DNA of 64,000 nt from an uncultured Gammaproteobacteria bacterium (GTDB lineage Bacteria; Patescibacteriota; Microgenomatia; Levybacterales; UBA12049). A program made the position numbers and the translations under genes. Shown here piece after piece: positions 6,152 to 64,000 of this stretch (the stretch's first letter is position 1; each line of letters starts with the position of its first letter). Under the pieces are notes generated by a model that did not search any database, was not told the DNA's origin, and saw only the letters and a program-made list of their open reading frames with translations. The stretch lies in contig CAZFNO010000001.1 in NCBI GenBank assembly GCA_964520695.1, positions 8,211-72,210 of the forward strand. The letters run 5' to 3'.

Positions 6152-7077
6152 ATATAAAAAATAAAAAAGTTTTAGTTACGGGCATAGATGGATTTGTAGG
6201 CAGTCATTTAAGCAATGCGTTAAATAGATTGGGGGCAGATGTTATTGGAATTTCAAAAATCAGAAAAGGAAAAGGCATATATAATATAGATATTGTTAAT
6301 TTTAAAAAGCTCAGTTATGTTTTTAAAAAAGAGAAAATAGAAATATGTTTTCATCTTGCCGGAGTCTCTCTTGTAGAGGAAGGACAAAAAAATCCTTACG
6401 ACACATTTAAAATTAATATTCTTGGAGCCCTTAATATTTTAGAGCTAACAAAAATCTATAATTTAGATCGAGTTATAGTAGCTTCTACAGCTCACGTATA
6501 TGGCGATAATATCCCTCCTTTTAAGGAAACTTACTATCCCCGTCCCTCAAGGCCATATGAAACATCAAAGGCAACAGTAGATTTAATCTCGCAAAGCTAT
6601 GCAGACACCTTCGATCTACCGGTACTGATTCCAAGATTTGTAAATATTTATGGACCAGGAGACGTTCATCAAACGCGACTTATACCAAAAACAATAAAAT
6701 CCGTACTTAAAGGAGAAAATCCTAAAATATGGGGAGGAGAAATAGTTAGGGACTATCTTTTTGTTGATGACGCAATTGATGGATATATAAAACTAGCAAC
6801 TGTTGATTTGAATAAAATTGGCAGGAACAGAATATTTAATTTTGGAAGCGGAAATAAGATATCAGTAATATCAATAGTGGAAAAAACAATTAAATTAAGC
6901 GGTAAACGATTAAAAATACGAAAGGAAAAGAATCAGCGGGAGCTTGAGATTGACCAACAATATGTATCTTTTGAGAAAGCAGATAAATTATTAGGATGGA
7001 GGCCTAAAGTAGGAATTGGTGAGGGTTTAAAGAAGACATTTAAATGGGCAAAAGAAATAGATACGGAAATAATTTAA
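6148..7077 (+). CDS. NAD-dependent sugar epimerase/dehydratase (extended SDR)
   Basis: 'VLVTGIDGFVGSHL' glycine-rich NAD motif, catalytic 'YETSK' (YxxxK). Confidence 0.7.
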   Translation: MNIKNKKVLVTGIDGFVGSHLSNALNRLGADVIGISKIRKGKGIYNIDIVNFKKLSYVFKKEKIEICFHLAGVSLVEEGQKNPYDTFKINILGALNILELTKIYNLDRVIVASTAHVYGDNIPPFKETYYPRPSRPYETSKATVDLISQSYADTFDLPVLIPRFVNIYGPGDVHQTRLIPKTIKSVLKGENPKIWGGEIVRDYLFVDDAIDGYIKLATVDLNKIGRNRIFNFGSGNKISVISIVEKTIKLSGKRLKIRKEKNQRELEIDQQYVSFEKADKLLGWRPKVGIGEGLKKTFKWAKEIDTEII

Positions 7078-7129: not shown

Positions 7130-8107
7130 ATGAGAAGAAATAAGACAGCCTTGGTTTTCGGCGCGGGTGGATTTATAGGTGGCCACTTAGTTAAAAAATT
7201 AAAAAAAGATGGATATTATGTTTTCGGAGTTGATCTTAAAAAACCTGAATACAGTGAAACTTTGGCAGACAAATTTATCCTTGGAGATCTGACAGAACAG
7301 AAATTTGTTAAAAAAGTTTTTAATAAAAAATATGACGAAGTTTACCAATTAGCAGCAGACATGGGAGGGGCAGGGTATATATTTACAGGCGACAATGATG
7401 CAAAAATTATGTATAGCTCCGCACTCATTAACTTAAATGTGCTTAATGAAATGGTAAATTCAAAATCAAAGAAAATTTTTTACTCCTCCTCTGCGTGTAT
7501 TTATCCTGAATACAATCAGCTAAATCCTGAAAATCCTAAGACGTCTGAGGACTCGGCCTATCCTGCCGAGCCTGATAGCGAATACGGCTGGGAAAAACTG
7601 TTTTCTGAGCGAATGTTTCTTGCTTATCACAGAAACTTTGGTTTAGAGGTAAGAATAGCCAGATTCCATAACATATTTGGACCTGAAGGAGTATGGAAAG
7701 GTGGACGGGAAAAATCGCCCGCAGCAATTTGCAGAAAAATTGCAGAAGCAAAAGAAGGAGGACAAATTGAGATATGGGGTGACGGTAAACAGACAAGATC
7801 ATATCTTTATATAGATGAGTGTCTTGAGGGAGTTAGAAGGTTTATGGACAGTAACTTTGCAGGCCCTGTGAATATAGGATCTGAAGAAATGGTAGCAATA
7901 AATGATTTAGCAAAAATGGTAATGAAAATAGCAAATAAGAAAGTGAAGCTAAAGCATGTAAAAGGTCCCCTTGGAGTACGAGGGCGTAAATCCGATAACG
8001 CTTTGATAAGAAAAAAGTTGGGTTGGGAGCCTAAAATTCCTCTTATTGACGGAATGACCAAGACCTATATTTGGATTGAGGCTCAAGTTAATAAGTCAGC
8101 AAGATAA
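7130..8107 (+). CDS. NAD-dependent sugar epimerase/dehydratase (extended SDR)
   Basis: 'ALVFGAGGFIGGHLV', catalytic 'YGWEK'; ATG at 7130 preferred over the ORF-track TTG at 7091. Confidence 0.7.
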   Translation: MRRNKTALVFGAGGFIGGHLVKKLKKDGYYVFGVDLKKPEYSETLADKFILGDLTEQKFVKKVFNKKYDEVYQLAADMGGAGYIFTGDNDAKIMYSSALINLNVLNEMVNSKSKKIFYSSSACIYPEYNQLNPENPKTSEDSAYPAEPDSEYGWEKLFSERMFLAYHRNFGLEVRIARFHNIFGPEGVWKGGREKSPAAICRKIAEAKEGGQIEIWGDGKQTRSYLYIDECLEGVRRFMDSNFAGPVNIGSEEMVAINDLAKMVMKIANKKVKLKHVKGPLGVRGRKSDNALIRKKLGWEPKIPLIDGMTKTYIWIEAQVNKSAR

Positions 8108-12127: not shown

Positions 12128-14353
12128 ATGAGCATAATTCAATCCCGATGGTTAAAAATTAGTCTTAATATTGTAATCATTGGATTTTTGTTCTTACTCC
12201 CATATTACCTATTTGATGGGAGACTCTTTTTGGGGGGAGATGATACTCGACTTCATTACATTTATCCAGCAGAGTTTTTAAAAAACCTGTCATTTTATTC
12301 ATGGGTAAATATCTCCTCACTACCGTCCTATCTTCCCAACCATCACTCAATACCATTTCTTTTTGTTTTTTCAATTTTAGATAGCATTTTAAACAATAAG
12401 ACTCAGCTTTTTTATTTCGCGTTTTCATTACCATTTGTTCTTGGATTCATTTACTCCCAAAAATTTATTAGAGAACTTGTGGATGAGGATTTTGGGATAT
12501 CTTTTACCGCTTCCTTGATATACATTTTTTCTCCAATAACAGTAGTAAGCCAGATGTATAATTTTTTATTTTCAATGTATCTTGTAGCCGCAGTTCCTAT
12601 TGTTGCATATTACTATATTTGTTATTTAAAAAAAGGGAAAAAAACCGAAGTCTATAAAGTAGTCTTTTGGTCAATTTTCTTTTCAATTGCATTTCTGGCT
12701 ATTCAGTGGATATTAGGGATTTTGCTTCCATTAGTATTAGGGCTTATCTTAATGGTATTTATAGACAATCCGATTAGAAAAATAGCAAGAAGAACAGTTA
12801 TTTTCTTTTACTTTGTTATATCTAGTCAGTTATTTTGGCTTACTCCTTTTATAGTTTCCATTTTATATAAAGGTGACAGTAACCTAGGTGAGAAAATATC
12901 ATCACAGAATTTTCTTGATAGTTTTTCTCAGACAGTAACAGGAACAGCTACTAGCAACATTATCTACCCATTATTAACTTTTTATCACAGACAGATAGCT
13001 TTTGATTATGAATGGCATCTTAAAAATGTCTTTAGTAATTACTTCGATTATGTTATGCCACTTAGCATTATTTTTATTTTAGTTCTATTTTTAGGACTTG
13101 TTAAGTATAATCAGGTGTTAAATAATGATAAAAAACAAATATTTATTTTTTTCTTTGCCTCATTTATTTTTATACTATATTTTTCTACAGTTAATATAAG
13201 CTTTCTCAAAGATATTTTTTTGCTTTTGGGTCACGTTCCTGGATTTGCCATATTCAGAAATTTTACAGATAAGTTTGCCCTTTCTTATATTTTTATTTAT
13301 TCTTCTTTATTTGCTTTATGTATCTACGTCATTAAAAAAAGGTACGGGAAATTTCATAAACTGATTATCTTTGCAACAATAATTGTAGTTGTTATTAACT
13401 TTTTCCCAGTAAGACAAATATTAAATAGTCCATTATGGAAAACAAGAAATGTTTATACAACTGTAAATTTTCCCAAGGAATATGTACATTTTGCGGAAAA
13501 CACAAAACGCACTATCCCAGATACAACCAATATTATCGTATTTCCTCAAAACATAACCTCCTATTCAATAATAACTGAGGATAATGGTAAAAATGCTTAC
13601 ATAGGAACTTCTCCTTTTAAATATTTAACTGGAGTAAATGATCTAACCGGATTGACTTCTTATCCGTTATATATATCAATTGAGGTAAAAAAATTAATTA
13701 TAGGGAGAAACTATGAGGGCCTACTCAAGCTCCTTTCACAAATAAATACAGGTTATGCTATGGTGATCAATAATATTCCGGAAGAGGTTTATGACTCCTA
13801 TTTGTTTGAGGAGAAGTATCTTGAGTTTCAAGATCAAAAATTAATTGACGCTATCTCTGAAAAAGAAATAGTAAAAAGCAATAATGGAAATTATGTGGTT
13901 TTTAAACTGAGAAATTCTCCATCCGTTATTTCTTCAACTGCTGACTTTTCATTCAAGAAACATAACCAAATAAAATACGAAATAACACTTAAGGGTTTAA
14001 AAGGTGAACATGAGCTTATTTTCCGAGAAACTTATCATCCCGGCTGGAAACTTTTTGTTACAAAAAAAGATCAACAAAAATGGTTTTACCTTTTTAGAAA
14101 TCCAGTATTTGAAACTTCTCATAAACAAGCAAAGGTATATGGCAATAAATGGACAATTAGCGAAAAAGAGATAAAAATTAATTTAGATAAGGATGATTAT
14201 AAACTGAACTCCGACGGCTCAATTGAAGTGGAATTTGATTTGTATTTTTTCCCTCAAAGCTATTTTTATATAGGGATAATTATGAGTGCCTTTTTTCTTT
14301 TTACCGGTGGTTTTTATTTTTTCAGAAAAACTAAGAATAAAAAAAATAACTAA
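12128..14353 (+). CDS. Large polytopic membrane glycosyltransferase, GT-C fold with YfhO-like C-terminal domain (paralog A)
   Basis: 'GGDDTRLHY' acidic loop after TM1, >12 TM helices, soluble C-terminal domain with 'YHPGWKLFV'; paralogous to 16386..18803. Confidence 0.5.
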   Translation: MSIIQSRWLKISLNIVIIGFLFLLPYYLFDGRLFLGGDDTRLHYIYPAEFLKNLSFYSWVNISSLPSYLPNHHSIPFLFVFSILDSILNNKTQLFYFAFSLPFVLGFIYSQKFIRELVDEDFGISFTASLIYIFSPITVVSQMYNFLFSMYLVAAVPIVAYYYICYLKKGKKTEVYKVVFWSIFFSIAFLAIQWILGILLPLVLGLILMVFIDNPIRKIARRTVIFFYFVISSQLFWLTPFIVSILYKGDSNLGEKISSQNFLDSFSQTVTGTATSNIIYPLLTFYHRQIAFDYEWHLKNVFSNYFDYVMPLSIIFILVLFLGLVKYNQVLNNDKKQIFIFFFASFIFILYFSTVNISFLKDIFLLLGHVPGFAIFRNFTDKFALSYIFIYSSLFALCIYVIKKRYGKFHKLIIFATIIVVVINFFPVRQILNSPLWKTRNVYTTVNFPKEYVHFAENTKRTIPDTTNIIVFPQNITSYSIITEDNGKNAYIGTSPFKYLTGVNDLTGLTSYPLYISIEVKKLIIGRNYEGLLKLLSQINTGYAMVINNIPEEVYDSYLFEEKYLEFQDQKLIDAISEKEIVKSNNGNYVVFKLRNSPSVISSTADFSFKKHNQIKYEITLKGLKGEHELIFRETYHPGWKLFVTKKDQQKWFYLFRNPVFETSHKQAKVYGNKWTISEKEIKINLDKDDYKLNSDGSIEVEFDLYFFPQSYFYIGIIMSAFFLFTGGFYFFRKTKNKKNN

Positions 14354-14366
14354 TTTAGCATTAAGT

Positions 14367-15392
14367 ATGTATTCTAATAAATTTGTAAAATGGATACTGA
14401 TTCCTGGTTTGCTACTGCTTTTATGGATCTCGCTATCTCTGTTTTATAGTTCATATAGAAGTTTTACAGTTTTACAATACGGCCACAAGACAGATGTTTC
14501 TAACAACTTTGGTGAAAGACAATTACTAAAGAATCAGAAGATTCAGGGAAAATTTGTGGCAAAGGAGAATTATTTAGGCATAATCTCTATAAGATTCGGA
14601 GATATTCCGAAGGTAGATTATGATGAAGAAGATTTAATATTGTTTAGAATTAGAGAAAAAGGCCAACAAGATTGGATATATGAAAATAAATATAGGTCTG
14701 GCTCTTTTTTACAAAATCAATATTTCCCATTCGGATTTAAGCAAATAGAAAACTCCAAAGGAAAAGTATATGAATTTGAATTAATTTCCTTAAATGGAGA
14801 AGAATTCAATTCTGTTGAAATAAAAAACACAAATCCTATCTATTTTTCAAAGTATAAATTTCCAAAAAATGAGATTTTTAAAGACAGTAATTCTATTATA
14901 AAATTTATGACTAAAAAATTAATAACTTTTGCAAATAGTTATGATGCATTGCTTTCTTCTTTTGCATTCTTAATTCCTTTTATTTTCTACATGTTGTGGA
15001 TAATATTTTTTGAAATATGGGTCAAAAGTAAAGGAATAATAAACAGAAGAAATTTATTCATAACCTTTGTTTCAGCATTGATAATATCAGAAATTATTTT
15101 CTATGAATTTATAATTGCCGGATTTATGTTAGGCCTTCTTGCCTTATGGGTTTTTACAGTTTATGTCTGTAAACTTAAAAGTACAACAACATTTACATTA
15201 GCTTTTATTCTATTAGCAATTTCCATCATAAGTCTCTATTTTGATTTGGGGGTATCAGCTGACAAGGCTTCAACTTATGCTTATTTTTTGATTATAGTTG
15301 GATTTGCGCAAAGTATAGGGGAGCATAAGAATTACAAACTAAATGATTTGAAAAAGAAATTTCATTTTAAGATTGAGGATAAAACGTCTTGA
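14367..15392 (+). CDS. Membrane protein, partner of the GT-C paralog (TM - ~150 aa soluble domain - 4 TM)
   Basis: N-terminal TM, central hydrophilic domain ('FRIREKGQQDWIYENKYRSG'), C-terminal helices; paralog of 18800..19798; ATG at 14367. Confidence 0.45.
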   Translation: MYSNKFVKWILIPGLLLLLWISLSLFYSSYRSFTVLQYGHKTDVSNNFGERQLLKNQKIQGKFVAKENYLGIISIRFGDIPKVDYDEEDLILFRIREKGQQDWIYENKYRSGSFLQNQYFPFGFKQIENSKGKVYEFELISLNGEEFNSVEIKNTNPIYFSKYKFPKNEIFKDSNSIIKFMTKKLITFANSYDALLSSFAFLIPFIFYMLWIIFFEIWVKSKGIINRRNLFITFVSALIISEIIFYEFIIAGFMLGLLALWVFTVYVCKLKSTTTFTLAFILLAISIISLYFDLGVSADKASTYAYFLIIVGFAQSIGEHKNYKLNDLKKKFHFKIEDKTS

Positions 15393-16348
15393 AAATGCTG
15401 AGCTAATTTTTTTTGACTCTCTAAAGAGGGATGAACGTCATCAGAAAAATCATTTTCTTCAAGCCAGGAGAATGGATCAATAAAATATAAGTTGTTTTTT
15501 TCTGCTAAAATCTTAATTACATTATTATAATTTTGCAATACGTTCTTATTAATATCATTCCTTTGCAATATCCCCACAAGAAATATTTTCCCATCAGGAT
15601 TAAATTTTTTTACATCAGAAACTATTTTAGAATAGTCTTTTTCAAAAGTATCAAGCTCTACATTTCTTGTCGTATCATTAGTGCCCAGAAAAATAATTAT
15701 TACATTCGATTTAAAGCTCATTAAGTCTTTTTTATAACGTTTGATTGCGTTATCGGCACCTGATACTTCCGAAACGGTTGATTCGATAATGCTCGCATTG
15801 TGAAGTTCATAACCTAAATCTTCAGCCAAGAGATGAGTGTAGTTATTTTTTCCATATATCGTAGAAATTGAATCCCCAAGGATTGAGAGAGTTTTGTCGT
15901 GTTTTCTGTAGGAAGTTATGTCTGCACTCCTTTCAACGTAGATTCCTTTTATAGTTATCTGGCATGGATTATAGAAAAAACTGCAGAAGTGGCGAACTGT
16001 AACGGTGTGCGGCTTTTTTTTATCAACAGCAATCGATAGCCTTTGAGTTTCTAAGTTCGGGGAAGAGATTGAATAAACCTTTTCGTCCACAAGTATTTCC
16101 GCTCCCTGATCTGCTTTTGAGTTAGTATCGAATTCAAAGGCTATTTCCTGACTATTATTTATTATAAAACTAAACTCACTTCCTGAATAATTGCTTTGAT
16201 TATTTATCCATCCAACGCCCCTATTTATAGATCCACTGTTTGCAACATTTTTACTTTTGTCGTTGAATAATAAAATATAGGACAAGATTAGTGCTAAAAT
16301 AGATAAAAATATAATTCCTCGTCTAAAATATAAATGTTTTAATTTCAT
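15362..16348 (-). CDS. SGNH/GDSL-family hydrolase with N-terminal membrane anchor
   Basis: Block I 'LGDSIS', block III 'GTNDT', block V 'DDVHPS'; N-terminal hydrophobic helix. Confidence 0.7.
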   Translation of the reverse strand: MKLKHLYFRRGIIFLSILALILSYILLFNDKSKNVANSGSINRGVGWINNQSNYSGSEFSFIINNSQEIAFEFDTNSKADQGAEILVDEKVYSISSPNLETQRLSIAVDKKKPHTVTVRHFCSFFYNPCQITIKGIYVERSADITSYRKHDKTLSILGDSISTIYGKNNYTHLLAEDLGYELHNASIIESTVSEVSGADNAIKRYKKDLMSFKSNVIIIFLGTNDTTRNVELDTFEKDYSKIVSDVKKFNPDGKIFLVGILQRNDINKNVLQNYNNVIKILAEKNNLYFIDPFSWLEENDFSDDVHPSLESQKKLAQHFQDVLSSILK

Positions 16349-42563: not shown

Positions 42564-43871
42564 ATGGAAGAAAACCTGATGGAAAAGATTGTCGCGCTAG
42601 CAAAACGGCGGGGTTTTATTTATCCCGGATCGGAAATCTACGGAGGGCTCGCAGGCACGTGGGATTATGGCCCGCTGGGAGTTGAGTTGAAGAATAATAT
42701 TAAAAAAGAGTGGTGGAAGTCCATGGTCCAGCTTCGAGACGACGTTGTAGGACTGGACGCAGCCATAATGATGAATCCTACTGTTTGGGAAGCCTCAGGC
42801 CACGTTAGCGCCTTCACAGACCCATTGGTTGAATGTAAGGTTTGTCACGTTCGTTTGCGAGCAGACAAAAAAGAAGAAATCGAACAGCACGAAAAAACTC
42901 ACAAAGAAGCTTCCTGGACACAGCCACGTAAGTTTAATTTATTGGTAAAAACATATTTGGGGGTTTTGGAGGAAGACAAACAAGAACTCTTTCTCCGCGG
43001 AGAAATAACACAAGGCGCTTTTGTTAATTTTGAAAATGTAGTTAGTTCGACTCGTGTCAAAATACCCTTTGGAATTGCTCAGATTGGAAAAGCATTTAGA
43101 AATGAAATAACTCCCGGAAATTTTACTTACCGCTCGCGTGAATTTGAACAGATGGAGCTTGAGTTTTTTGTCGGCCCGACCGATGCGGAAGCCAATAAAT
43201 GGTTTGAGTATTGGAAAGGGGAGCGGATGGAGTGGTATAAAAGTTTAGGTTTAAACAAAGACAAACTTCGTTTCCGAAAGCATGAAGATACAGAGCGTGC
43301 ACATTACGCCAAATCCGCGGAAGATATAGAATATGAAGCGCCCTTTGGATGGAGTGAATTTGAAGGAATTCATCACAGGGGAGATTGGGACCTCTCGCGA
43401 CATAAATTAGGATATGTTGACGAAGACGGGAAGAAATTTACACCCTGGGTCATTGAAACATCAGGAGGGGTGGACAGGTCTGCTTTATTTTTCTTACTCG
43501 ATTCTTATAAAGAAGTTGACCCTTCGGCAGGCTCAGGGCAAGGAAAAAGAGTTTGGCTAAGTTTGAATCCTAAACTCGCGCCATACAAAGTTGCAGTTTT
43601 TCCACTGTTAGGAAACAAACCTAAACTTATAGATAAAGCAAAAGGCATTTATGACAGTTTGAGGCCTCATTTTATGACCGCTTGGGATGACCGTGGTAAC
43701 ATCGGCAAGCGCTATCTTTCCCAGGATGAAGCAGGAACGCCGTGGTGTGTAACAGTTGATTTTCAAACTATTGAAGATGACACTGTCACTATCCGCGACC
43801 GCGATACAACAAAACAGGAAAGAGTAAAAATCTCAGATCTTGAATCTTACTTTAAAACTAAGTTGGAGTAA
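42564..43871 (+). CDS. glyQS: Glycine--tRNA ligase (dimeric class II)
   Basis: 'RRGFIYPGSEIYGGLAGTWDYGPLG' motif 1 region, class II motifs downstream. Confidence 0.85.
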   Translation: MEENLMEKIVALAKRRGFIYPGSEIYGGLAGTWDYGPLGVELKNNIKKEWWKSMVQLRDDVVGLDAAIMMNPTVWEASGHVSAFTDPLVECKVCHVRLRADKKEEIEQHEKTHKEASWTQPRKFNLLVKTYLGVLEEDKQELFLRGEITQGAFVNFENVVSSTRVKIPFGIAQIGKAFRNEITPGNFTYRSREFEQMELEFFVGPTDAEANKWFEYWKGERMEWYKSLGLNKDKLRFRKHEDTERAHYAKSAEDIEYEAPFGWSEFEGIHHRGDWDLSRHKLGYVDEDGKKFTPWVIETSGGVDRSALFFLLDSYKEVDPSAGSGQGKRVWLSLNPKLAPYKVAVFPLLGNKPKLIDKAKGIYDSLRPHFMTAWDDRGNIGKRYLSQDEAGTPWCVTVDFQTIEDDTVTIRDRDTTKQERVKISDLESYFKTKLE

Positions 43872-59134: not shown

Positions 59135-59143
59135 TTGTCAACT

Positions 59144-60286
59144 ATGCTCATAAAACCTCAGACGACTAATTTTGCAAAAATAAGAGTAATGGGTATAGGG
59201 GGCGGAGGAACAAATGCCCTAAACTCTATGATTGCGCAGTCATCCATTCAGGGCGTGGATTTCATAGCAGTTAATACAGATGCACAATCTCTTCTTCTTA
59301 ATCAGGCGGCAACAAAAGTTCAGATTGGAGAAGAACTGACAAAAGGACTGGGCTCTGGCGGAAATCCGGAAATTGGAGTACAAGCTGCTGAAGAGTCATA
59401 TGAAAAATTAAAAGATATTTTAGGAGGTACAGACATGGTTTTTCTGGCAGCCGGAATGGGAGGAGGGACAGGATCGGGTTCAACCCCTGTTATAGCAAGG
59501 GCAGCAAAAGAAGTTGGAGCATTAACAGTTGCTGTTGCAACAAAACCATTTACATTTGAGGGAACAAGAAGAATGGTAGTTGCCGAGGAAGCAATTGAAA
59601 ATTTAAAAGACAAAGTAGATACGCTGATTGTAATTCCAAATCAGAGAATTTTAGATGTAGTTGATAAAAAACTTTCACTTCTTGAAGCATTTAAAGTTGC
59701 GGATTCGGTGCTCACCCAGGGAGTTCAGGGAATCTCCGATCTTATAACAATGCCCGGACTTATCAATGTAGACTTTGCGGATGTCAGAACAATTATGCAA
59801 AACGCAGGCACCTCTCTTATGGGAATTGGAACAGGAGTGGGTGAGAATAGAGCCCAAGCAGCAGCGCGGGCTGCAATTGCCTCTCCTCTTCTTGAAATTA
59901 CAATAGAAGGGGCAAGGGGAGTTCTATTTAATGTAATAGGAGGACCGGATCTTACAATGAGCGAGGTGGATGATGCGGCAAAAATTATTGCACAAGCCGC
60001 AGACTCTGATGCAAATATAATTTTTGGTGCAACGATTGATGAGAGTATGAAAGATCAAATGAAAATAACGGTTATTGCAACAGGATTTGACAGCACCCGC
60101 CAGACATTACGCGAGTTTGTTGCTCCTCAGAGGTTTGATTCATCGCAGGCTTTTGGTGCTCAGCAGGAACAAAATACGGATTCACAGCAGGGTCAGGAAG
60201 AACCTCCTCCGCCCTCATCTCCACCTAGTGCTGAAGATGAGGAAGACGTCTGGGACATCCCCGCATTCCTAAGACAGAAGAATTAA
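59144..60286 (+). CDS. ftsZ: Cell division GTPase FtsZ
   Basis: 'GIGGGGTNA', 'GGTGSG' tubulin signature, conserved C-terminal peptide 'DIPAFLRQKN'; ATG at 59144. Confidence 0.95.
   Translation: MLIKPQTTNFAKIRVMGIGGGGTNALNSMIAQSSIQGVDFIAVNTDAQSLLLNQAATKVQIGEELTKGLGSGGNPEIGVQAAEESYEKLKDILGGTDMVFLAAGMGGGTGSGSTPVIARAAKEVGALTVAVATKPFTFEGTRRMVVAEEAIENLKDKVDTLIVIPNQRILDVVDKKLSLLEAFKVADSVLTQGVQGISDLITMPGLINVDFADVRTIMQNAGTSLMGIGTGVGENRAQAAARAAIASPLLEITIEGARGVLFNVIGGPDLTMSEVDDAAKIIAQAADSDANIIFGATIDESMKDQMKITVIATGFDSTRQTLREFVAPQRFDSSQAFGAQQEQNTDSQQGQEEPPPPSSPPSAEDEEDVWDIPAFLRQKN
60259..60286 (+). repeat. Copy A of ftsZ 3'-end repeat (native gene end, PAFLRQKN + TAA)
   Basis: CCCCGCATTCCTAAGACAGAAGAATTAA. 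Confidence 0.7.
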
Positions 60287-60293
60287 CCCCAGG

Positions 60294-60321
60294 TTGACAA
60301 TTCAGGACAAAGTGATATTAT
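60294..60321 (+). promoter_or_regulatory. Sigma70-like promoter TTGACA-16-TATTAT
   Basis: -10 ends 7 nt before the ATG at 60329, so a leaderless transcript is predicted. Confidence 0.55.
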
Positions 60322-60328
60322 TTGAGAT

Positions 60329-60886
60329 ATGGCAATAAGAGTTGAGAACATTGTCGCAAGACCTCCGTATCCAGAAAAACATCCACTTGCCCCAGTTGAA
60401 ATCAGCCCAGAATCAGCAAAGTTAGTTATGAGAGAAAGGGTTAAGAGGTATGCAGAGGGAATTCCTCAAGGATTTGTATCCAGAGCAAGAGGTCCAAGGA
60501 GATCATTGACCCTGATTAGTATAGATAGGGAGGGAGGATGGATGAATTCTACTGAAGCGGGTCATCCTGGATATGTTTTAGACGGAGTCCAGCTTCAAGA
60601 TTTGACAATTGAAGCCATGCAAGAGTTCGGATTAAACACAAATATTACTTATGAATCAGAACACAGTCTCAATCCGCATCCCAACGGAACAATAAGGGAG
60701 CGTACGGTATATCCAAGTCAGACAGTAAAAGGACTATCTTTTGAAAGATGGTTTGATTCTGTAGAGGCTACCGGAGAACCAGTATCCGTGGACTGGAGAT
60801 TGTTAGACACTCATGTAAATCCTGGTGAAGTGCTTATAGGAATGACACCTCCTAAGGAGGTTGTCGCAGTTCAACCTTCTAACTAA
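60329..60886 (+). CDS. Hypothetical protein (185 aa, no TM, unrecognised)
   Basis: Clean ORF with dedicated promoter; no known motif. Confidence 0.5.
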   Translation: MAIRVENIVARPPYPEKHPLAPVEISPESAKLVMRERVKRYAEGIPQGFVSRARGPRRSLTLISIDREGGWMNSTEAGHPGYVLDGVQLQDLTIEAMQEFGLNTNITYESEHSLNPHPNGTIRERTVYPSQTVKGLSFERWFDSVEATGEPVSVDWRLLDTHVNPGEVLIGMTPPKEVVAVQPSN

Positions 60887-60942
60887 AATAATTCCCTCTT
60901 GATATCAATTCTCAAAAAGTTTATATTTTGCCTAGGTGTTTT

Positions 60943-60992
60943 TAGTCCTTCGGCCTTACTCCCTCCAGAGGCGGGCAAGCAGGATAAAACAG
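60943..60992 (+). repeat. GC-rich conserved element, copy 1 (TAGTCCTTCGGCCTTACTCCCTCCAGAGGCGGGCAAGCAGGATAAAACAGG)
   Basis: Shares ~40 nt with 63276..63320, differing mainly by small indels. Confidence 0.6.
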
Positions 60993-60993
60993 G

Positions 60994-61019
60994 CCGCATT
61001 TCTCAGGCAGAAGAATTAG
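60994..61019 (+). repeat. Copy B of ftsZ 3'-end repeat (AAFLRQKN + TAG)
   Basis: CCGCATTTCTCAGGCAGAAGAATTAG; keeps reading frame and stop. Confidence 0.65.
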
Positions 61020-61020
61020 A

Positions 61021-61048
61021 TTGACAATTCAGGAACTACTTGTATAAT
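61021..61048 (+). promoter_or_regulatory. Sigma70-like promoter TTGACA-16-TATAAT
   Basis: TTGACAATTCAGGA is identical over 14 nt to the promoter at 60294; -10 ends 7 nt before the ATG at 61056. Confidence 0.55.
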
Positions 61049-61055
61049 TCTTACC

Positions 61056-61727
61056 ATGACTTTGGAACATGAACTAAGAACTGATTTTGGTGATCCACTC
61101 TCGGAACAACTAAGTCCTTTAGCCGCAGCAGAAGAATTTACGAGAATTTGTGAGATGCTTGATGAAAGACATATCTCATCGTTTCAGGCAGAGGAGGATT
61201 ATTGGGAATCCGGTAAAAGAATATTTGCAGGAGATCCTACAAAAAGACTTGGTGAATTATTATCTCAGTATTATGCCGGTACTCCAACCGCAAGAAAACG
61301 TTTATTGACGGAAGGATTCATAAAACACGGATATAATATGGGGGACGTGGTAAGTGATATTCCCTTTGGAAATTGGCCCGGAGACCTTGGAATGGATATT
61401 GAAAACGGAAGTGCGGGAGTATTTGAGAGGGAGGGAGCGCGGAAAATAGAAAGAACAGAGCTTCTGTTCTGGCTTCCTATTGAGATTGATTTTGATCTAG
61501 CAGGTATGATGGGAAGTTTGTCCGGTGATCCCAAAAAATCAATAGAGGCGTTTTTACAACAAATAGAAGAGTATGAAAAGGTATTCGGAGAGCCTTATGA
61601 CAGCCCCAGAGAAGAAGATACCGAGCATGAAAGGGTAGAAGCTGAGAAAGCAAAAGCAACAATACAGAGGCTTAAAAAAATTTTAGAAAGATTGGGACCT
61701 TCGAGTAATACAAGACTTGATAATTAA
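61056..61727 (+). CDS. Hypothetical acidic protein (223 aa)
   Basis: Clean ORF, own promoter, no recognisable domain. Confidence 0.5.
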   Translation: MTLEHELRTDFGDPLSEQLSPLAAAEEFTRICEMLDERHISSFQAEEDYWESGKRIFAGDPTKRLGELLSQYYAGTPTARKRLLTEGFIKHGYNMGDVVSDIPFGNWPGDLGMDIENGSAGVFEREGARKIERTELLFWLPIEIDFDLAGMMGSLSGDPKKSIEAFLQQIEEYEKVFGEPYDSPREEDTEHERVEAEKAKATIQRLKKILERLGPSSNTRLDN

Positions 61728-61760
61728 TTCCCCTGGCTCTATTCAAAGAGTGATCAATAG

Positions 61761-61787
61761 CCCGCATTCCTAAGGCAGAAGAATTAA
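61761..61787 (+). repeat. Copy C of ftsZ 3'-end repeat (stop-PAFLRQKN-TAA)
   Basis: CCCGCATTCCTAAGGCAGAAGAATTAA, 26/27 identical to copy A; its TTAA also provides the stop of the antisense gene 61784..62014. Confidence 0.65.
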
Positions 61788-62014
61788 ATTGTACTATAAC
61801 CCCTAACGTGGAGAATGTCGTTCTTGCTGACCCTGCGGACATCAGAAAATTTAAGAGTTATTAATGCAACAGTTTTACCTGTTGCTGTAACAAATTCTAC
61901 CTCAATTGTCTTACCATCTTCATATGCATTTACAACTGCTCCCATATCTCCAGCTCTGAGGCCGTGTTCAGGAATGTCGCGCTTAAGTATGACTGTTTCT
62001 AATTCTTCAAACAT
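61784..62014 (-). CDS. DUF4926-like small protein (antitoxin-like partner)
   Basis: 'VILKRDIPEHGLRAGDMGAVVNAYEDGKTIEVEF' resembles the DUF4926 core; start taken at the internal ATG (62014). Confidence 0.45.
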   Translation of the reverse strand: MFEELETVILKRDIPEHGLRAGDMGAVVNAYEDGKTIEVEFVTATGKTVALITLKFSDVRRVSKNDILHVRGYSTI

Positions 62015-62021
62015 ACGCTTA

Positions 62022-62297
62022 TTATAGAGGATAAGCCGTGATAAATCTAGGGCTACCCTCATCTTTCTTTACAAACCAAACAGTGTTTATTTTAACTTTC
62101 TTACCGCTTGGTGATTTTATTATTCCGTCTAACACGTAATTTGTACCATAAGGCAATTTTCTAGATTCTTTTATTTCATTTGATTGGGCGATTGTTATGA
62201 ATGATTTAATCAAAATATCTATGTTGTTATTATTAAAACCAAGTTTTCGAAAAAACTTCGCTTTAGATCTACCGACTATGTGTGTTTCTGAAAGCAA
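62022..62297 (-). CDS. DUF6883-like small protein (toxin-like partner)
   Basis: 'GRSKAKFFRKLGF' and C-terminal 'VWFVKKDEGSPRFITAYPL' resemble the DUF6883 family; TTG start, possibly N-terminally truncated. Confidence 0.45.
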   Translation of the reverse strand: MLSETHIVGRSKAKFFRKLGFNNNNIDILIKSFITIAQSNEIKESRKLPYGTNYVLDGIIKSPSGKKVKINTVWFVKKDEGSPRFITAYPL

Positions 62298-62356
62298 ATA
62301 ATTAGTTTAGCCCGCCAAATCAATCTAAATTATCCTTTTATTTTAATCCTTTAAGG

Positions 62357-62384
62357 TTGACAATATTTAATCCTGTAGTATAAT
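62357..62384 (+). promoter_or_regulatory. Sigma70-like promoter TTGACA-16-TATAAT
   Basis: -10 ends 6 nt before the ATG at 62391 (leaderless). Confidence 0.55.
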
Positions 62385-62390
62385 TCGTGC

Positions 62391-63194
62391 ATGGCTGGCT
62401 GGCTTGAAAGAAATATTAATAGAATAAAAGATCGAGAGAGGGAACTCGAAGAAGAAAGAATCAGAAAACAAAAAGAAGAATTAAGACTACATCAGGAGCA
62501 AGAACAAATTAGGATCGATGAAACATCGAAGGGAAATAGAAGACTTTTAGAGACGTTAGAGAGACTAAATGCAAGGGGATGTTTGGAAGATATAAATACT
62601 TTAACATGGGATGGTGTTGGTACTATTACCATCGATGATCTATTGGCGAATAGAGGGCGAATGGGCATTGAACTTTCTTTTGAATATCCGAGGTATTCTA
62701 CTTATTATTCTCCTGCCTCTGGAATCTTTGATAGCTATAGATCAGCGTCAACTTCTCATTCCGTTAAGTGGGTTTCAACCATGATTAGAGTAGGCCTTGT
62801 TTTAACATTATTAGAAGTACCAGCATTAGAATTGGAAGCCACTTACGGATTTGATACCGACTCTTATGGACAAGCAAAACCGCAATTTAGAGAGCATGTA
62901 TCTGATGTTTTAGTTGATTCGCCAGAATCAGCAAAAGTTGTTATAGAAGATTTCTTAGGAAAAGATATATTAAGACGACAAAGATCCGAATCGTTTCCAC
63001 TTCAACTTGCCAAAAAGGGTTTTGTAGGAATTAATAAAGGTTTACTAACTGGTAGTCCTGGGTGGGAGGAGCGCGTACAACGCGTACAAAGCTTTATAGA
63101 TTCTTCCCCAATTGGGACTTACACTGCGCCTGAGCCAGAATGGATGAGAACACACACTGCAGCACCATATCGTGAGTCTCCTGACAATTGGTAA
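62391..63194 (+). CDS. Hypothetical protein with N-terminal coiled coil (267 aa)
   Basis: 'RIKDRERELEEERIRKQKEELRLHQEQEQIR' heptad-like charged segment, then a globular domain; unrecognised. Confidence 0.5.
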   Translation: MAGWLERNINRIKDRERELEEERIRKQKEELRLHQEQEQIRIDETSKGNRRLLETLERLNARGCLEDINTLTWDGVGTITIDDLLANRGRMGIELSFEYPRYSTYYSPASGIFDSYRSASTSHSVKWVSTMIRVGLVLTLLEVPALELEATYGFDTDSYGQAKPQFREHVSDVLVDSPESAKVVIEDFLGKDILRRQRSESFPLQLAKKGFVGINKGLLTGSPGWEERVQRVQSFIDSSPIGTYTAPEPEWMRTHTAAPYRESPDNW

Positions 63195-63275
63195 TCCAGT
63201 ATTTCTAGTCATAAATATGATATATTCTAATCAGATGTTTTTAGTATGAATTGAAGCTAGAAATAATCTCTGACT

Positions 63276-63320
63276 TAGTCCGTTCGGCAAGCTCTCTCCA
63301 GAGGCGGGCAGGATAAAACA
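63276..63320 (+). repeat. GC-rich conserved element, copy 2 (TAGTCCGTTCGGCAAGCTCTCTCCAGAGGCGGGCAGGATAAAACA)
   Basis: Matches 60943..60992; here fused directly to a promoter with no ftsZ-tail copy. Confidence 0.6.
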
Positions 63321-63329
63321 TTCCCCATA

Positions 63330-63357
63330 TTGACAAATTGATATAGTTTGATATAAT
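63330..63357 (+). promoter_or_regulatory. Sigma70-like promoter TTGACA-16-TATAAT
   Basis: 20-nt leader containing AGGAA before the ATG at 63378. Confidence 0.5.
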
Positions 63358-63377
63358 CCACGCTTAGGAATAAACAT

Positions 63378-64000
63378 ATGAATGAAATACCAGGTCAGCC
63401 ACCAAAAGACGAACCAAAGGCAGTTCAAATGCCTACTGGAGACGAAATGCTACGAAGGCTTCAAGCTACTGGTCTTTATGGATTAACTCCACAGACAGAT
63501 GCTTTTTATGATCAGTTTATGAAATATTCTGCAGGCCATCAACTTAATGGAATGGGTCTCACTAATACTTGGGAACTTGCAAGTTATGATACTTTAAGAC
63601 AGTATCCCCCAGCTCTGAGAGCAGTAATCGGTGCTGGATTTGACAGAGTAATTGATGCAATAACTCCTGATGAAAAGGTGGCAGATGATGCAAAACAATT
63701 TAGAAAAAAAGTACTTGAGGAATTAGCAAGAAAAGCTAAAGAAAGTGAACCCACACCAGAGGAGCTTGGTCCAGCAGATTCGCTAACTGATTTAGCAAGA
63801 TATTCACAAGCCCGTAGAATAGCAGATATCGTGTTTGAGTATGCCAGTGGCGACGTTGGTGTTTCATTTGATTATATATGGATGCAGGATAGAAGAGGAG
63901 AAAGTCCAAATCCATACTACAAACAAACCCATAGAGGTTTTTTCTTAGAAGGATATTATGGACAAATAAGTACACTATGGACTCCATGGGGAGAATATGG
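63378..64000 (+). CDS. Hypothetical protein, 5' part only (runs off the window; not in the ORF track)
   Basis: Manual translation from the ATG at 63378 ('MNEIPGQPPKDEPKAVQMPTGDEML...') gives 207 sense codons with no stop to position 64000. Confidence 0.45.
   Translation, partial: MNEIPGQPPKDEPKAVQMPTGDEMLRRLQATGLYGLTPQTDAFYDQFMKYSAGHQLNGMGLTNTWELASYDTLRQYPPALRAVIGAGFDRVIDAITPDEKVADDAKQFRKKVLEELARKAKESEPTPEELGPADSLTDLARYSQARRIADIVFEYASGDVGVSFDYIWMQDRRGESPNPYYKQTHRGFFLEGYYGQISTLWTPWGEY

Follow-up and report, generated by a model that had tools for sequence, protein, structure and literature searches.

In Escherichia coli, the tyrosine-integrase elements e14 and phage 21 insert in the 3′ end of icd and bring a surrogate gene end with synonymous differences, and the displaced original icd end stays as a pseudo-fragment at the far junction. 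In staphylococci, the staphylococcal cassette chromosome (SCC) and psi-SCC cassettes at rlmH (orfX) are bounded by direct repeats with the last codons of the gene, and recombinase-less cassettes are thought to be mobilised in trans. Accretion of cis-mobilisable elements (CIMEs) and integrative and conjugative elements (ICEs), and of islands at tRNA genes, gives arrays at one attachment (att) site, in which the elements are separated by att copies and integrase-less elements are retained. On a smaller scale, yeast mitochondrial GC clusters and bacterial repetitive extragenic palindromic (REP) sequences are short GC-rich, partly palindromic inserts in AT-rich spacers, and occur nested and in tandem. 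The locus described here lies downstream of the division gene ftsZ in a 64,000-nt stretch of contig CAZFNO010000001.1 from a member of the Microgenomatia (hereafter the window), where a preliminary description had picked out two copies, A and B, of a GC-rich element of about 45 nt. These copies are probably an insertion module in fossil attR-type junctions of cassettes that integrated at the 3′ end of ftsZ, and most likely are not promoter elements.

Under this model, small islands and integrase-less cassettes of Woesebacteria and other Microgenomates would integrate site-specifically into a 28-bp site overlapping the last codons of ftsZ, with a Xer-like tyrosine integrase family dedicated to that site as the likely catalyst and the integrase-less cassettes presumably mobilised in trans. 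The incoming DNA would supply its own copy of the ftsZ end, keeping the FtsZ C-terminal peptide and pushing the former end downstream, and serial events would give the array ftsZ, cassette, tail copy, cassette, tail copy. Each cassette (promoter, gene or genes, boundary unit, tail) would start with its own strong promoter right after a tail, and the GC element would seem to lie upstream of promoters because the cassette promoter directly follows the tail. The window junctions are proposed to be fossils, with copy A the putative remnant of a deletion between two modules of one unit, and copy B splitting the predicted left recombinase-binding arm beside a truncated tail. The GC module itself would be a paralogous short insertion lodged in the element-side arm of decayed attR-type junctions, presumably without a function of its own, or at most disabling the site. 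The model draws on the anatomy of the junctions, homology with relatives, empty and filled insertion sites, the linkage of integrase genes to the site in relatives, and the absence of RNA-like or promoter-like properties.

Like e14 and phage 21 at icd, the locus appears to combine an element in the 3′ end of a housekeeping gene, a surrogate end and a displaced end at attR. It differs in its target, ftsZ, of which only the last ~8-12 codons are involved, in its host, a bacterium of the candidate phyla radiation (CPR), and in its apparently serial events, with arrays of up to 5 tail copies composed mostly of 1-3-gene integrase-less units. As in SCC, successive cassettes are bounded by gene-end repeats and recombinase-less cassettes occur in tandem with recombinase-bearing ones, but the SCC enzymes are serine recombinases (Ccr) whereas those found here are Xer-like tyrosine recombinases, and the cassettes are much smaller and have their own promoter each. 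The att-copy-separated array, with its integrase-less elements, is like CIME/ICE accretion and tRNA-gene island arrays, except that the target is the end of a protein gene rather than a tRNA gene and no conjugation genes were seen. Integrons likewise hold small, mostly unrelated, often toxin-antitoxin cassettes that each end in a recombination site, and in some of the genomes compared a recombinase is located near the primary site. However, the integrases carry no IntI-type signature (50-73 bits against the integron integrase model TIGR02249, cut-off 265) and vary in orientation, the sites, unlike attC, are sequence-conserved, ftsZ-derived and free of structural covariation, and the cassettes have their own 11-12/12 promoters. 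With dif, integrative mobile elements exploiting Xer (IMEX) and pdif modules, the locus shares an 11+6+11 = 28-bp core, Xer-like recombinases and site copies flanking small modules. In contrast to these, the site is inside a gene, the recombinases are not equivalogs of XerC, XerD or XerA (56-107 bits against XerC/XerD models with cut-offs of 330-335, and also far below the XerA cut-off), and the locus is not at the replication terminus; cumulative GC skew increases monotonically across the window, with no inflection at the locus, which argues that the site is not dif. The GC module is like GC clusters and REP sequences in being a short GC-rich insert in AT-rich spacers, nested or in tandem, and unlike them in its weak palindromy, the lack of target duplication, the confinement of the copies seen to one kind of unit and the lack of a linked gene for a REP-associated tyrosine transposase (RAYT).

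The repeat pair is real and far beyond chance. Copy A (60943-60991, TAGTCCTTCGGCCTTACTCCCTCCAGAGGCGGGCAAGCAGGATAAAACA) and copy B (63276-63320, TAGTCCGTTCGGCAAGCTCTCTCCAGAGGCGGGCAGGATAAAACA) match in 41 of 51 columns of a global alignment, and local alignment of the two spacers gave a score of 51, compared to 17.0 ± 2.4 (maximum 28) in 500 shuffles. A 15-mer, CTCCAGAGGCGGGCA, occurs exactly twice in the 64-kb window, once per copy; with up to 3 mismatches there were 3 matches in the window vs 0.32 expected, a number reached in 0 of 100 shuffles. The 3′ ends of the two copies are identical (GCAGGATAAAACA), and the G+C content of copies A and B is 0.55 and 0.56, relative to 0.27 and 0.26 for the remainder of each spacer. 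The preliminary description was therefore correct in placing repeats at 60943 and 63276 and in describing a GC-rich element (~55% G+C) within AT-rich spacers (~26% G+C). Its spacing of 30-60 nt upstream of a −35 box is approached by copy A, which ends 29 nt before the box at 61021, and fails for copy B, which ends 9 nt before the box at 63330; a promoter-like site upstream of copy A too (60899, TTGATA-17-TATATT, 10/12) had been missed.

A metagenome scan with the ftsZ-tail pattern gave at least 120 loci, and the contigs compared are referred to below by locus labels (L010-L147 etc.). The exact A/B form was found elsewhere only in L001, a 99%-identical strain, but the homologous long form is present in two copies in Candidatus Woesebacteria GW2011_GWB1_38_5b and short forms are present in at least 6 other contigs. 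Strictly, then, the element is not unique to two sites, whereas uniqueness to them is what the preliminary description had named as refuting it. The pattern CCAGAGGCGGGCN{0,4}AGGATAAA gave only 6 chance matches (Planctomycetota, Enterobacteria, others) across 185,579 species genomes. The copies also do not constitute an independent second repeat family as had been proposed, the GC element being an optional insert inside the ftsZ-tail repeat unit. The division and cell wall (dcw) cluster murG-ftsQ-ftsA-ftsZ closes the window, with ftsZ, the putative integration target, as its last gene and a product 88% identical to FtsZ of GW2011_GWB1_38_5b, which identifies the organism as a member of the Woesebacteria (Microgenomates, CPR). 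The features from ftsZ to the end of the window are as follows, with open reading frames (ORFs) named by their length in amino acids:

59135..60286, plus strand: ftsZ, 383 aa (ORF and translation).
60248..60275, plus strand: 28-bp core site in the ftsZ 3′ end, GTCTGGGACAT / CCCCGC / ATTCCTAAGAC (11+6+11), an attL-like junction; the tail runs on to the stop at 60286.
60294..60321, plus strand: cassette 1 promoter, TTGACA-16-TATTAT, 11/12, directly 3′ of the ftsZ stop; ATG 7 nt past the −10 box.
60329..60886, plus strand: cassette 1 cargo ORF185, without family match and absent from the compared relatives.
60897..61019, plus strand: boundary unit A, a decayed attR-type junction, 77-88% identical to L130 units; contains the promoter-like site (60899-60927), AGGTGTTTTTAG (60934-60945), the GC element and an ftsZ-tail half-site.
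60946-60989, plus strand: GC module of copy A with a nested 19-nt expansion, CCTCCAGAGGCGGGCAAGC.
60994..61019, plus strand: ftsZ-tail copy 2, ..GCC GCA TTT CTC AGG CAG AAG AAT TAG = AAFLRQKN*; left arm of the core site destroyed.
61021..61048, plus strand: cassette 2 promoter, 12/12; cassette 1 has a homologous promoter region (repeat family D3).
61056..61727, plus strand: cassette 2 cargo ORF223, homologues of which occur in arrays of this kind in L002 and L003; no exact match on record.
61762..61787, plus strand: ftsZ-tail copy 3, PAFLRQKN*, without left arm.
61784..62297, minus strand: DUF4926/DUF6883 two-gene cassette.
62357-62384, plus strand: promoter, 12/12, followed by cargo ORF267 (62391-63194).
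63221..63329, plus strand: boundary unit B; contains TATATT (63221-63226), AGATGTTTTTAG (63233-63244), TTGAAGCTAGAAATAATCTCTGACTTAG (63251-63278), the GC element and a truncated core, ACATTCCCCATA (63318-63329).
63279-63317, plus strand: GC module of copy B with a nested 15-nt expansion, at insertion position 2, splitting the left arm of the core site.
63330..64000, plus strand: promoter, 12/12 (63330-63357), then a cargo ORF from 63378 (>207 aa) that runs off the window end.

The last 26 nt of ftsZ (..CCGCATTCCTAAGACAGAAGAATTAA, encoding ..PAFLRQKN*) recur at 60994-61019 and 61762-61787, and together with the gene's own end at 60261-60286 this makes 3 occurrences of the tail pattern in the window vs 0.00 expected. 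The tails are silently different (TTC CTA AGA CAG AAG AAT TAA vs TTT CTC AGG CAG AAG AAT TAG). Encoding of the same FtsZ tail peptide by different synonymous codons points to the tails being attL/attR-type scars, as silent differences are expected if an element brings a surrogate ftsZ end and displaces the original to attR. All three downstream sites in the window are crippled: the left arm is missing at tail copies 2 and 3, and unit B has a split arm and a truncated core. The plus-strand ORFs of the array (185, 223, 267 and >207 aa) are unrelated and of unknown function, and each is preceded by a near-perfect sigma-70-type promoter. None of these four cargo ORFs had a Pfam or PADLOC family match, the minus-strand pair being DUF4926/DUF6883.

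Both window GC copies sit within a conserved boundary unit (60897-61019 and 63221-63329) that recurs in relatives. Among the matches listed, 79 CPR-type loci accounted for 35 different real ftsZ ends and 62 different copies in intergenic DNA, and ~40 matches were an unrelated human-gut gene. Many of the tail copies are embedded in a unit of ~140 nt that ends in a copy of the ftsZ 3′ end and has the layout cTTGACC-17 nt-TATATT - 7 nt - AGGTGTTTTTAG - TAAGAATTGAAGCTAGAAACAATGTCTGTCT(GGG/TAG)ACATCCCC-GCATTTCTAAGACAGAAGAATTAA; in shorter notation it reads promoter-like TTGAYN-17-TATATT, AGGTGTTTTTAG, TTGAAGCTAGAAAC... and the ftsZ 3′ end copy. In gene maps of 26 loci, ftsA-ftsZ was followed by variable genes, 1-5 of them between one tail copy and the next, and, on contigs long enough to show it, by ileS-rodA; tail copies were confined to the variable ftsZ-ileS interval wherever the flanks were visible. 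Among these variable genes are Doc/Fic-MazE pairs, NYN, DUF433, Fic and HATPase/STAS-like proteins (identified by Pfam for a sample, and from precomputed matches). BLASTN comparison of the window with L130 and L132, whose ftsZ genes are ~80% identical, showed that only the units, the tail copies and the DUF4926/DUF6883 cassette are common downstream of ftsZ, and that the other cargo differs. The cassette (window 61757-62307, L130 12063-12613) is 88.7% identical between the two genomes compared to 79.8% for ftsZ, consistent with lateral movement of the cassette. The suggestion that the GC repeats, together with the ftsZ-tail repeats, mark a region built from recombined modules is upheld by their presence in the same unit at cassette and island junctions, and of the roles first proposed for the element, a recombination scar is the one that gained support, the units being junctions of DNA apparently integrated at the ftsZ 3′ end.

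Logos of the 35 real and 62 copied sites among the matches listed gave the consensus GTCTTARRAAT / CCCCGC / ATTYYTAAGAC (11+6+11 = 28 bp). In real ftsZ genes the left arm is GTCTGGGACAT (V-W-D-I) and the 3′ end reads ..VWDIPAFLRQKN*; a further form of the site is GTCTTAGAAAT-CCCCGC-ATTTCTAAGAC. The arms are conserved toward an inverted-repeat consensus, but arm covariation is absent (5.69 Watson-Crick pairs per site vs 5.55 ± 0.11 when partners were shuffled). Covariation of the RNA type between the 11-bp arms was accordingly rejected, and the pattern is better suited to a protein-binding core site than to an RNA helix.

A tyrosine integrase (Pfam Phage_integrase plus a SAM-like N-terminal domain) was found beside ftsZ or a tail copy in the scan loci L066, L099 and L119. 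At E<1e-40, the family of the L066-type integrase, termed Int-A, has at least 325 members, which show 64-77% identity to the query and carry the label XerD or integrase in Gottesmanbacteria, Levybacteria and other Patescibacteria. Inspection of the genomic context of five Int-A homologues showed that all five are located <1 kb downstream of ftsZ; in four of them (L139, L141-143, L144/145, L146) the integrase gene starts 160-235 nt past the ftsZ stop, and in L147 ftsZ and the integrase gene are separated by a two-gene toxin-antitoxin cassette. In all, an integrase adjoins a junction in L066, L099, L119, L134, L139 and L141-147. Int-A and a second integrase, Int-B, both have the two-domain make-up of Xer-like recombinases, a type of enzyme that binds simple core sites.

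Intact islands bounded by a real ftsZ end and a tail copy, each with a tyrosine integrase next to ftsZ, were present in L139 (junctions 7810-7839 / 15696-15725; 7.9 kb, with ileS within ~1 kb after), L144 (7756-7785 / 14302-14331) and L066 (1161-1187 / 6770-6796). Direct repeats of the ftsZ 3′ end flank inserted DNA in the window and in L139, L144, L066, L124 and L147. The block common to both island junctions is ATCCCCGCATT, the distal (attR) copies encode IPAFLRQ(K/R)N* by other synonymous codons (TTT CTA CGT CAA AGA AAT TAA in L139), and in L066 and L139 the conserved boundary unit forms the element-side arm of attR. The order in L147 is ftsZ, promoter with antitoxin/Doc cassette, insert-free unit with tail, terminator with ATTGTCTTC.., and Int-A, which indicates that an integrase-less cassette was probably inserted in front of an integrase island. 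The tail pattern was found in a single IMG/VR contig, UViG_3300027835_000014 (L133/L134/L136; 34.8 kb, classed as viral), where one tail copy is flanked by two tyrosine integrases with a pairwise identity of 29%, and no ftsZ was found in viral contigs. This arrangement resembles a tandem of two elements at the site, one of them possibly a CPR prophage.

The basic form of the GC module is 24 nt, YCC(G)TTCGG-N5-6-CTCAGGRTAAA, and the window copies carry a nested expansion of 15-19 nt. Alignment of the window units with homologous units with and without inserts (alignment A2) defined two insertion positions. Position 1, TTTTTAG | TAAG, is empty in L064, L105, L130 (at 17807), L132 (at 14360) and L147; it is filled by the 24-nt TCCTTCGGCCTTGCTCAGGATAAA in L031, L033/L130 and L132, and by a 47-nt nested form, TCCTTCGGCCTTGCTC-CCTTCAGAATTTTCAGGGCAAGC-AGGATAAA, twice in L130 (14799 and 16863). 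Position 2, (TTAG/TGGG) | ACATCCCC, lies within the left arm of the core site; its occupants are TCCGTTCGGCAAGCTCAGGATAAA in L011, CCCGTTCGGTAAGCTCAGGGTAAA in L089 and, in L130 and L132, related tandem copies. An insert at position 2 separates GACTTAG from ACAT and breaks the left arm.

Copy B occupies position 2 and contains an additional TCTCCAGAGGCGGGC. The junction downstream of it (truncated core ACATTCCCC-ATA, then TTGACAAATTGATATAGTTTGATATAAT; window 63322-63361) is 95% identical to L132 14445-14485, part of an insert-free unit (14360-14485), and on this alignment the L132 junction is direct empty-site evidence for copy B. Copy A has a left junction of the position-1 type (TTTTTAG|TCCTTCGGCC) and a right junction of the position-2 type (AGGATAAA|ACA..CCGCATTT), without the intervening TAAGAATTGAAGCTAGAAAC..GTCT segment, as expected if copy A arose by a deletion between two direct-repeat modules within a single unit; L033 (at 6352) provides an example of a unit that has a module at each position. 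Copy A and L130 have homologous nested segments (CTCCCTYCAGA...GGGCAAGCAGGAT). The 15-mer common to A and B was not found in relatives apart from the 99%-identical L001, which points to duplication or gene conversion within the genome. In the module-bearing arrays sampled (the window, L130, L132, L087, L011, L031 and L089), no integrase was present in the sequence examined, and the attR arms of the integrase-bearing islands L066, L139, L144 and L147 contained no GC module.

Some of these features would also suit a miniature mobile or self-propagating element in the style of REP sequences, miniature inverted-repeat transposable elements (MITEs) or yeast mitochondrial GC clusters, one that prefers sites after TTAG or TGGG in AT-rich DNA and nests in itself; the two window copies would then be two of its insertions. 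This idea concerns chiefly the origin of the module and is compatible with the att-scar context, and it is rated as rather unlikely. It would account for the sharp empty and filled sites at two positions and for the tandem and nested copies (L130 12012/12042, 14799 and 14881/14910; L132 15056-15110), and it can draw on the hairpin that long forms are able to fold (CUUGCuCCCU/AGGGCAAG, −10.8 kcal/mol) and on the reverse-complementary centres of position-1 and position-2 modules (CCTTGC vs GCAAG). However, target-site duplications and terminal inverted repeats are lacking, short forms hardly fold (−1 to −4 kcal/mol), searching the 64-kb window and ~20 kb of dcw DNA from two relatives revealed no copy beyond the boundary units, and no transposase is consistently linked. 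Y1_Tnp (IS200/RAYT-type) genes of ~225 aa were seen near ftsZ arrays only in L002 (2056-2730) and L003 (6673-7350); a link to this transposase was rejected as it concerns two loci only and the insertion sites have no constant 5′ tetranucleotide. It is quite improbable that the whole unit is an expressed small gene or leader, in which an RNA from TTGACC-17-TATATT would encode a 19-aa FtsZ-tail mimic or form the 5′ leader of the next cassette, with the GC element as a regulatory hairpin that, for example, bridges AGGTG and a TTG start or switches the ORF off. The promoter-like sequence is conserved across units, including the attR of intact islands, a TTG- or ATG-start 19-codon ORF ending ..(W/L)DIPAFLRQ(K/R)N* is intact in ~8-11 units with synonymously different tails, and a long hairpin is predicted for the insert-free units of L064 (−25 kcal/mol) and L105 (−20 kcal/mol). 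Yet synonymous differences are equally expected of fossil real ftsZ ends, a stop directly precedes IPAFL in six units, neither window unit has an intact ORF, the inner stem shows no covariation, the GC element has no conserved fold, no terminator follows, and the AGGTG-TTG spacing is 12 nt without an insert but at least 36 nt with one. Sites of the 19-codon ORF, MKLETxSVWDIPAFLRQKN, are L064 1861-1950, L130 13350-13440 and 17832-17920, L139 15640-15725 and L147 4169-4260 (minus strand); in the window it is disrupted (63251-63317). The FtsZ C-terminal peptide is a docking motif for FtsA and other division proteins, and a long shot is that the units are small genes dosing the cell with free peptide decoys of this sequence, the GC inserts being an off switch imposed by host or element.

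Properties of RNA or of a promoter element were sought at the GC element itself, with largely negative results. Fold z-scores were not significant on either strand (−0.95, +0.57, +0.50 and +1.37), and the alifold consensus of five homologous long forms had an energy of −0.18 kcal/mol with only the terminal TCCT/AGGA pairs invariant, and hence uninformative. No terminator-like site was found at the element, no tRNA, tmRNA or known RNA family was found in the window, and Rfam gave no match at E≤1 in 60200-63450. The folding check that had been recommended therefore revealed no conserved structure, and the proposed small-RNA 3′ end is unsupported, a terminator, a stable or conserved fold and an Rfam match all being absent. 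A protein-binding promoter element, either UP-like or an operator, that regulates the strong downstream promoters is highly improbable, even though both copies lie upstream of 12/12 sigma-70-type promoters and share their 3′ ends. The gaps of 29 nt and 9 nt to the −35 box differ, UP elements are A+T-rich whereas this element is 55% G+C, and the two comparably strong array promoters at 60294 and 62357 have no GC element. In relatives, too, homologous units and promoters lack the element, among them the L132 promoter that is 95% identical to that of copy B and has no insert; the UP-like or transcription-factor element first put forward is thus unsupported by composition, spacing and homologues alike.

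Several observations count against the favoured explanation, that the GC copies are an insertion module in fossil attR-type junctions at the ftsZ end. No integrase was found between ftsZ and the window end (~3.7 kb of array; Pfam on the array ORFs), so that recombination at the 28-bp site is read from anatomy. The integrase-less state of module-bearing arrays fits decay, but the genomes concerned are few (the window, L130, L132, L087). The module recurs at two or three positions, in tandem or nested, and neutral decay is insufficient to explain this; a unit-specific duplicative or insertional process is needed, for which the lack of target-site duplication and of significant similarity between module and tail gives no mark. 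Derivation of the module as a degenerate duplicate of the ftsZ-tail core had been considered and was rejected, as local scores were mostly not above shuffles (p>0.1 for 11 of 13). Finally, the conserved promoter-like sequence and the intact 19-codon ORF in 8-11 units hint that the units may be more than scars.

Taken alone, the 45-nt repeat is a minor, lineage-specific detail of the putative ftsZ integration system. The wider proposal is that in Microgenomates (CPR/Patescibacteria) the last codons of an essential division gene serve as a dedicated attachment site for a large, conserved family of Xer-like integrases, and that one integration after another gives rise to arrays of cassettes separated by surrogate ftsZ ends. 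In the literature, no description was found of ftsZ as an attachment site in CPR or of this integrase family (subscription journals were outside coverage), and nothing was found for peptide strings typical of such GC repeats. If correct, the proposal would define an accessory-gene hotspot in tiny genomes with few known mobile elements, provide a practical landmark for CPR islands and prophages in metagenomes, and offer a candidate site-specific integration system, consisting of a 28-bp site and one recombinase, for lineages without genetic tools. Annotators would be advised to treat 'PAFLRQKN' mini-ORFs and GC-rich spacer repeats downstream of ftsZ as likely junction relics.

At ~10 loci, ftsZ ends in a 'recoded' tail (e.g. 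GCC TTC CTT CGC CAA AAG AAC TAG) and the canonical tail half-site follows 17-36 nt later (L002 9630-9721; L033/L130 11190-11242; L041 7830-7907; L030, L094, L111, L112, L122, L129 and L132 16922). In L002, ftsZ and the second tail share one reading frame, interrupted by the TAG stop, and the GC-rich spacer can pair with the recoded tail (CCTTCGCC/GGCGAGG). Recoded tails could represent ftsZ escaping its own attachment site, or a readthrough extension.

With regard to cassette expression, the ATG lies 6-7 nt past the −10 hexamer at three cassette promoters (60294-60331, 61021-61058 and 62357-62393), which suggests that these three window cassettes give leaderless mRNAs; the fourth promoter (63330) is followed by a 20-nt leader containing AGGAA. 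Paralogy of ORF185 and ORF267, prompted by a 23-nt repeat, was dismissed as unconvincing (BLASTP E=0.046). A segment resembling the GC module, CCCTTCGGCAGGCTCAGGGCAAGG, occurs at window 43520-43545, in frame in a glycyl-tRNA synthetase (GlyRS) gene (..EVDPSAGSGQGKRVW..); an in-frame insertion of the module was rejected there, as the segment aligns gap-free to solved GlyRS structures. A 17-nt inverted match (16/17) was also present between the ftsZ linker-coding sequence (60187-60203, GCAGGGTCAGGAAGAAC) and the 3′ end of the DUF4926 gene (61820-61836, GTTCTTGCTGACCCTGC), and by a rough estimate ~0.05 such matches are expected by chance in 6 kb.

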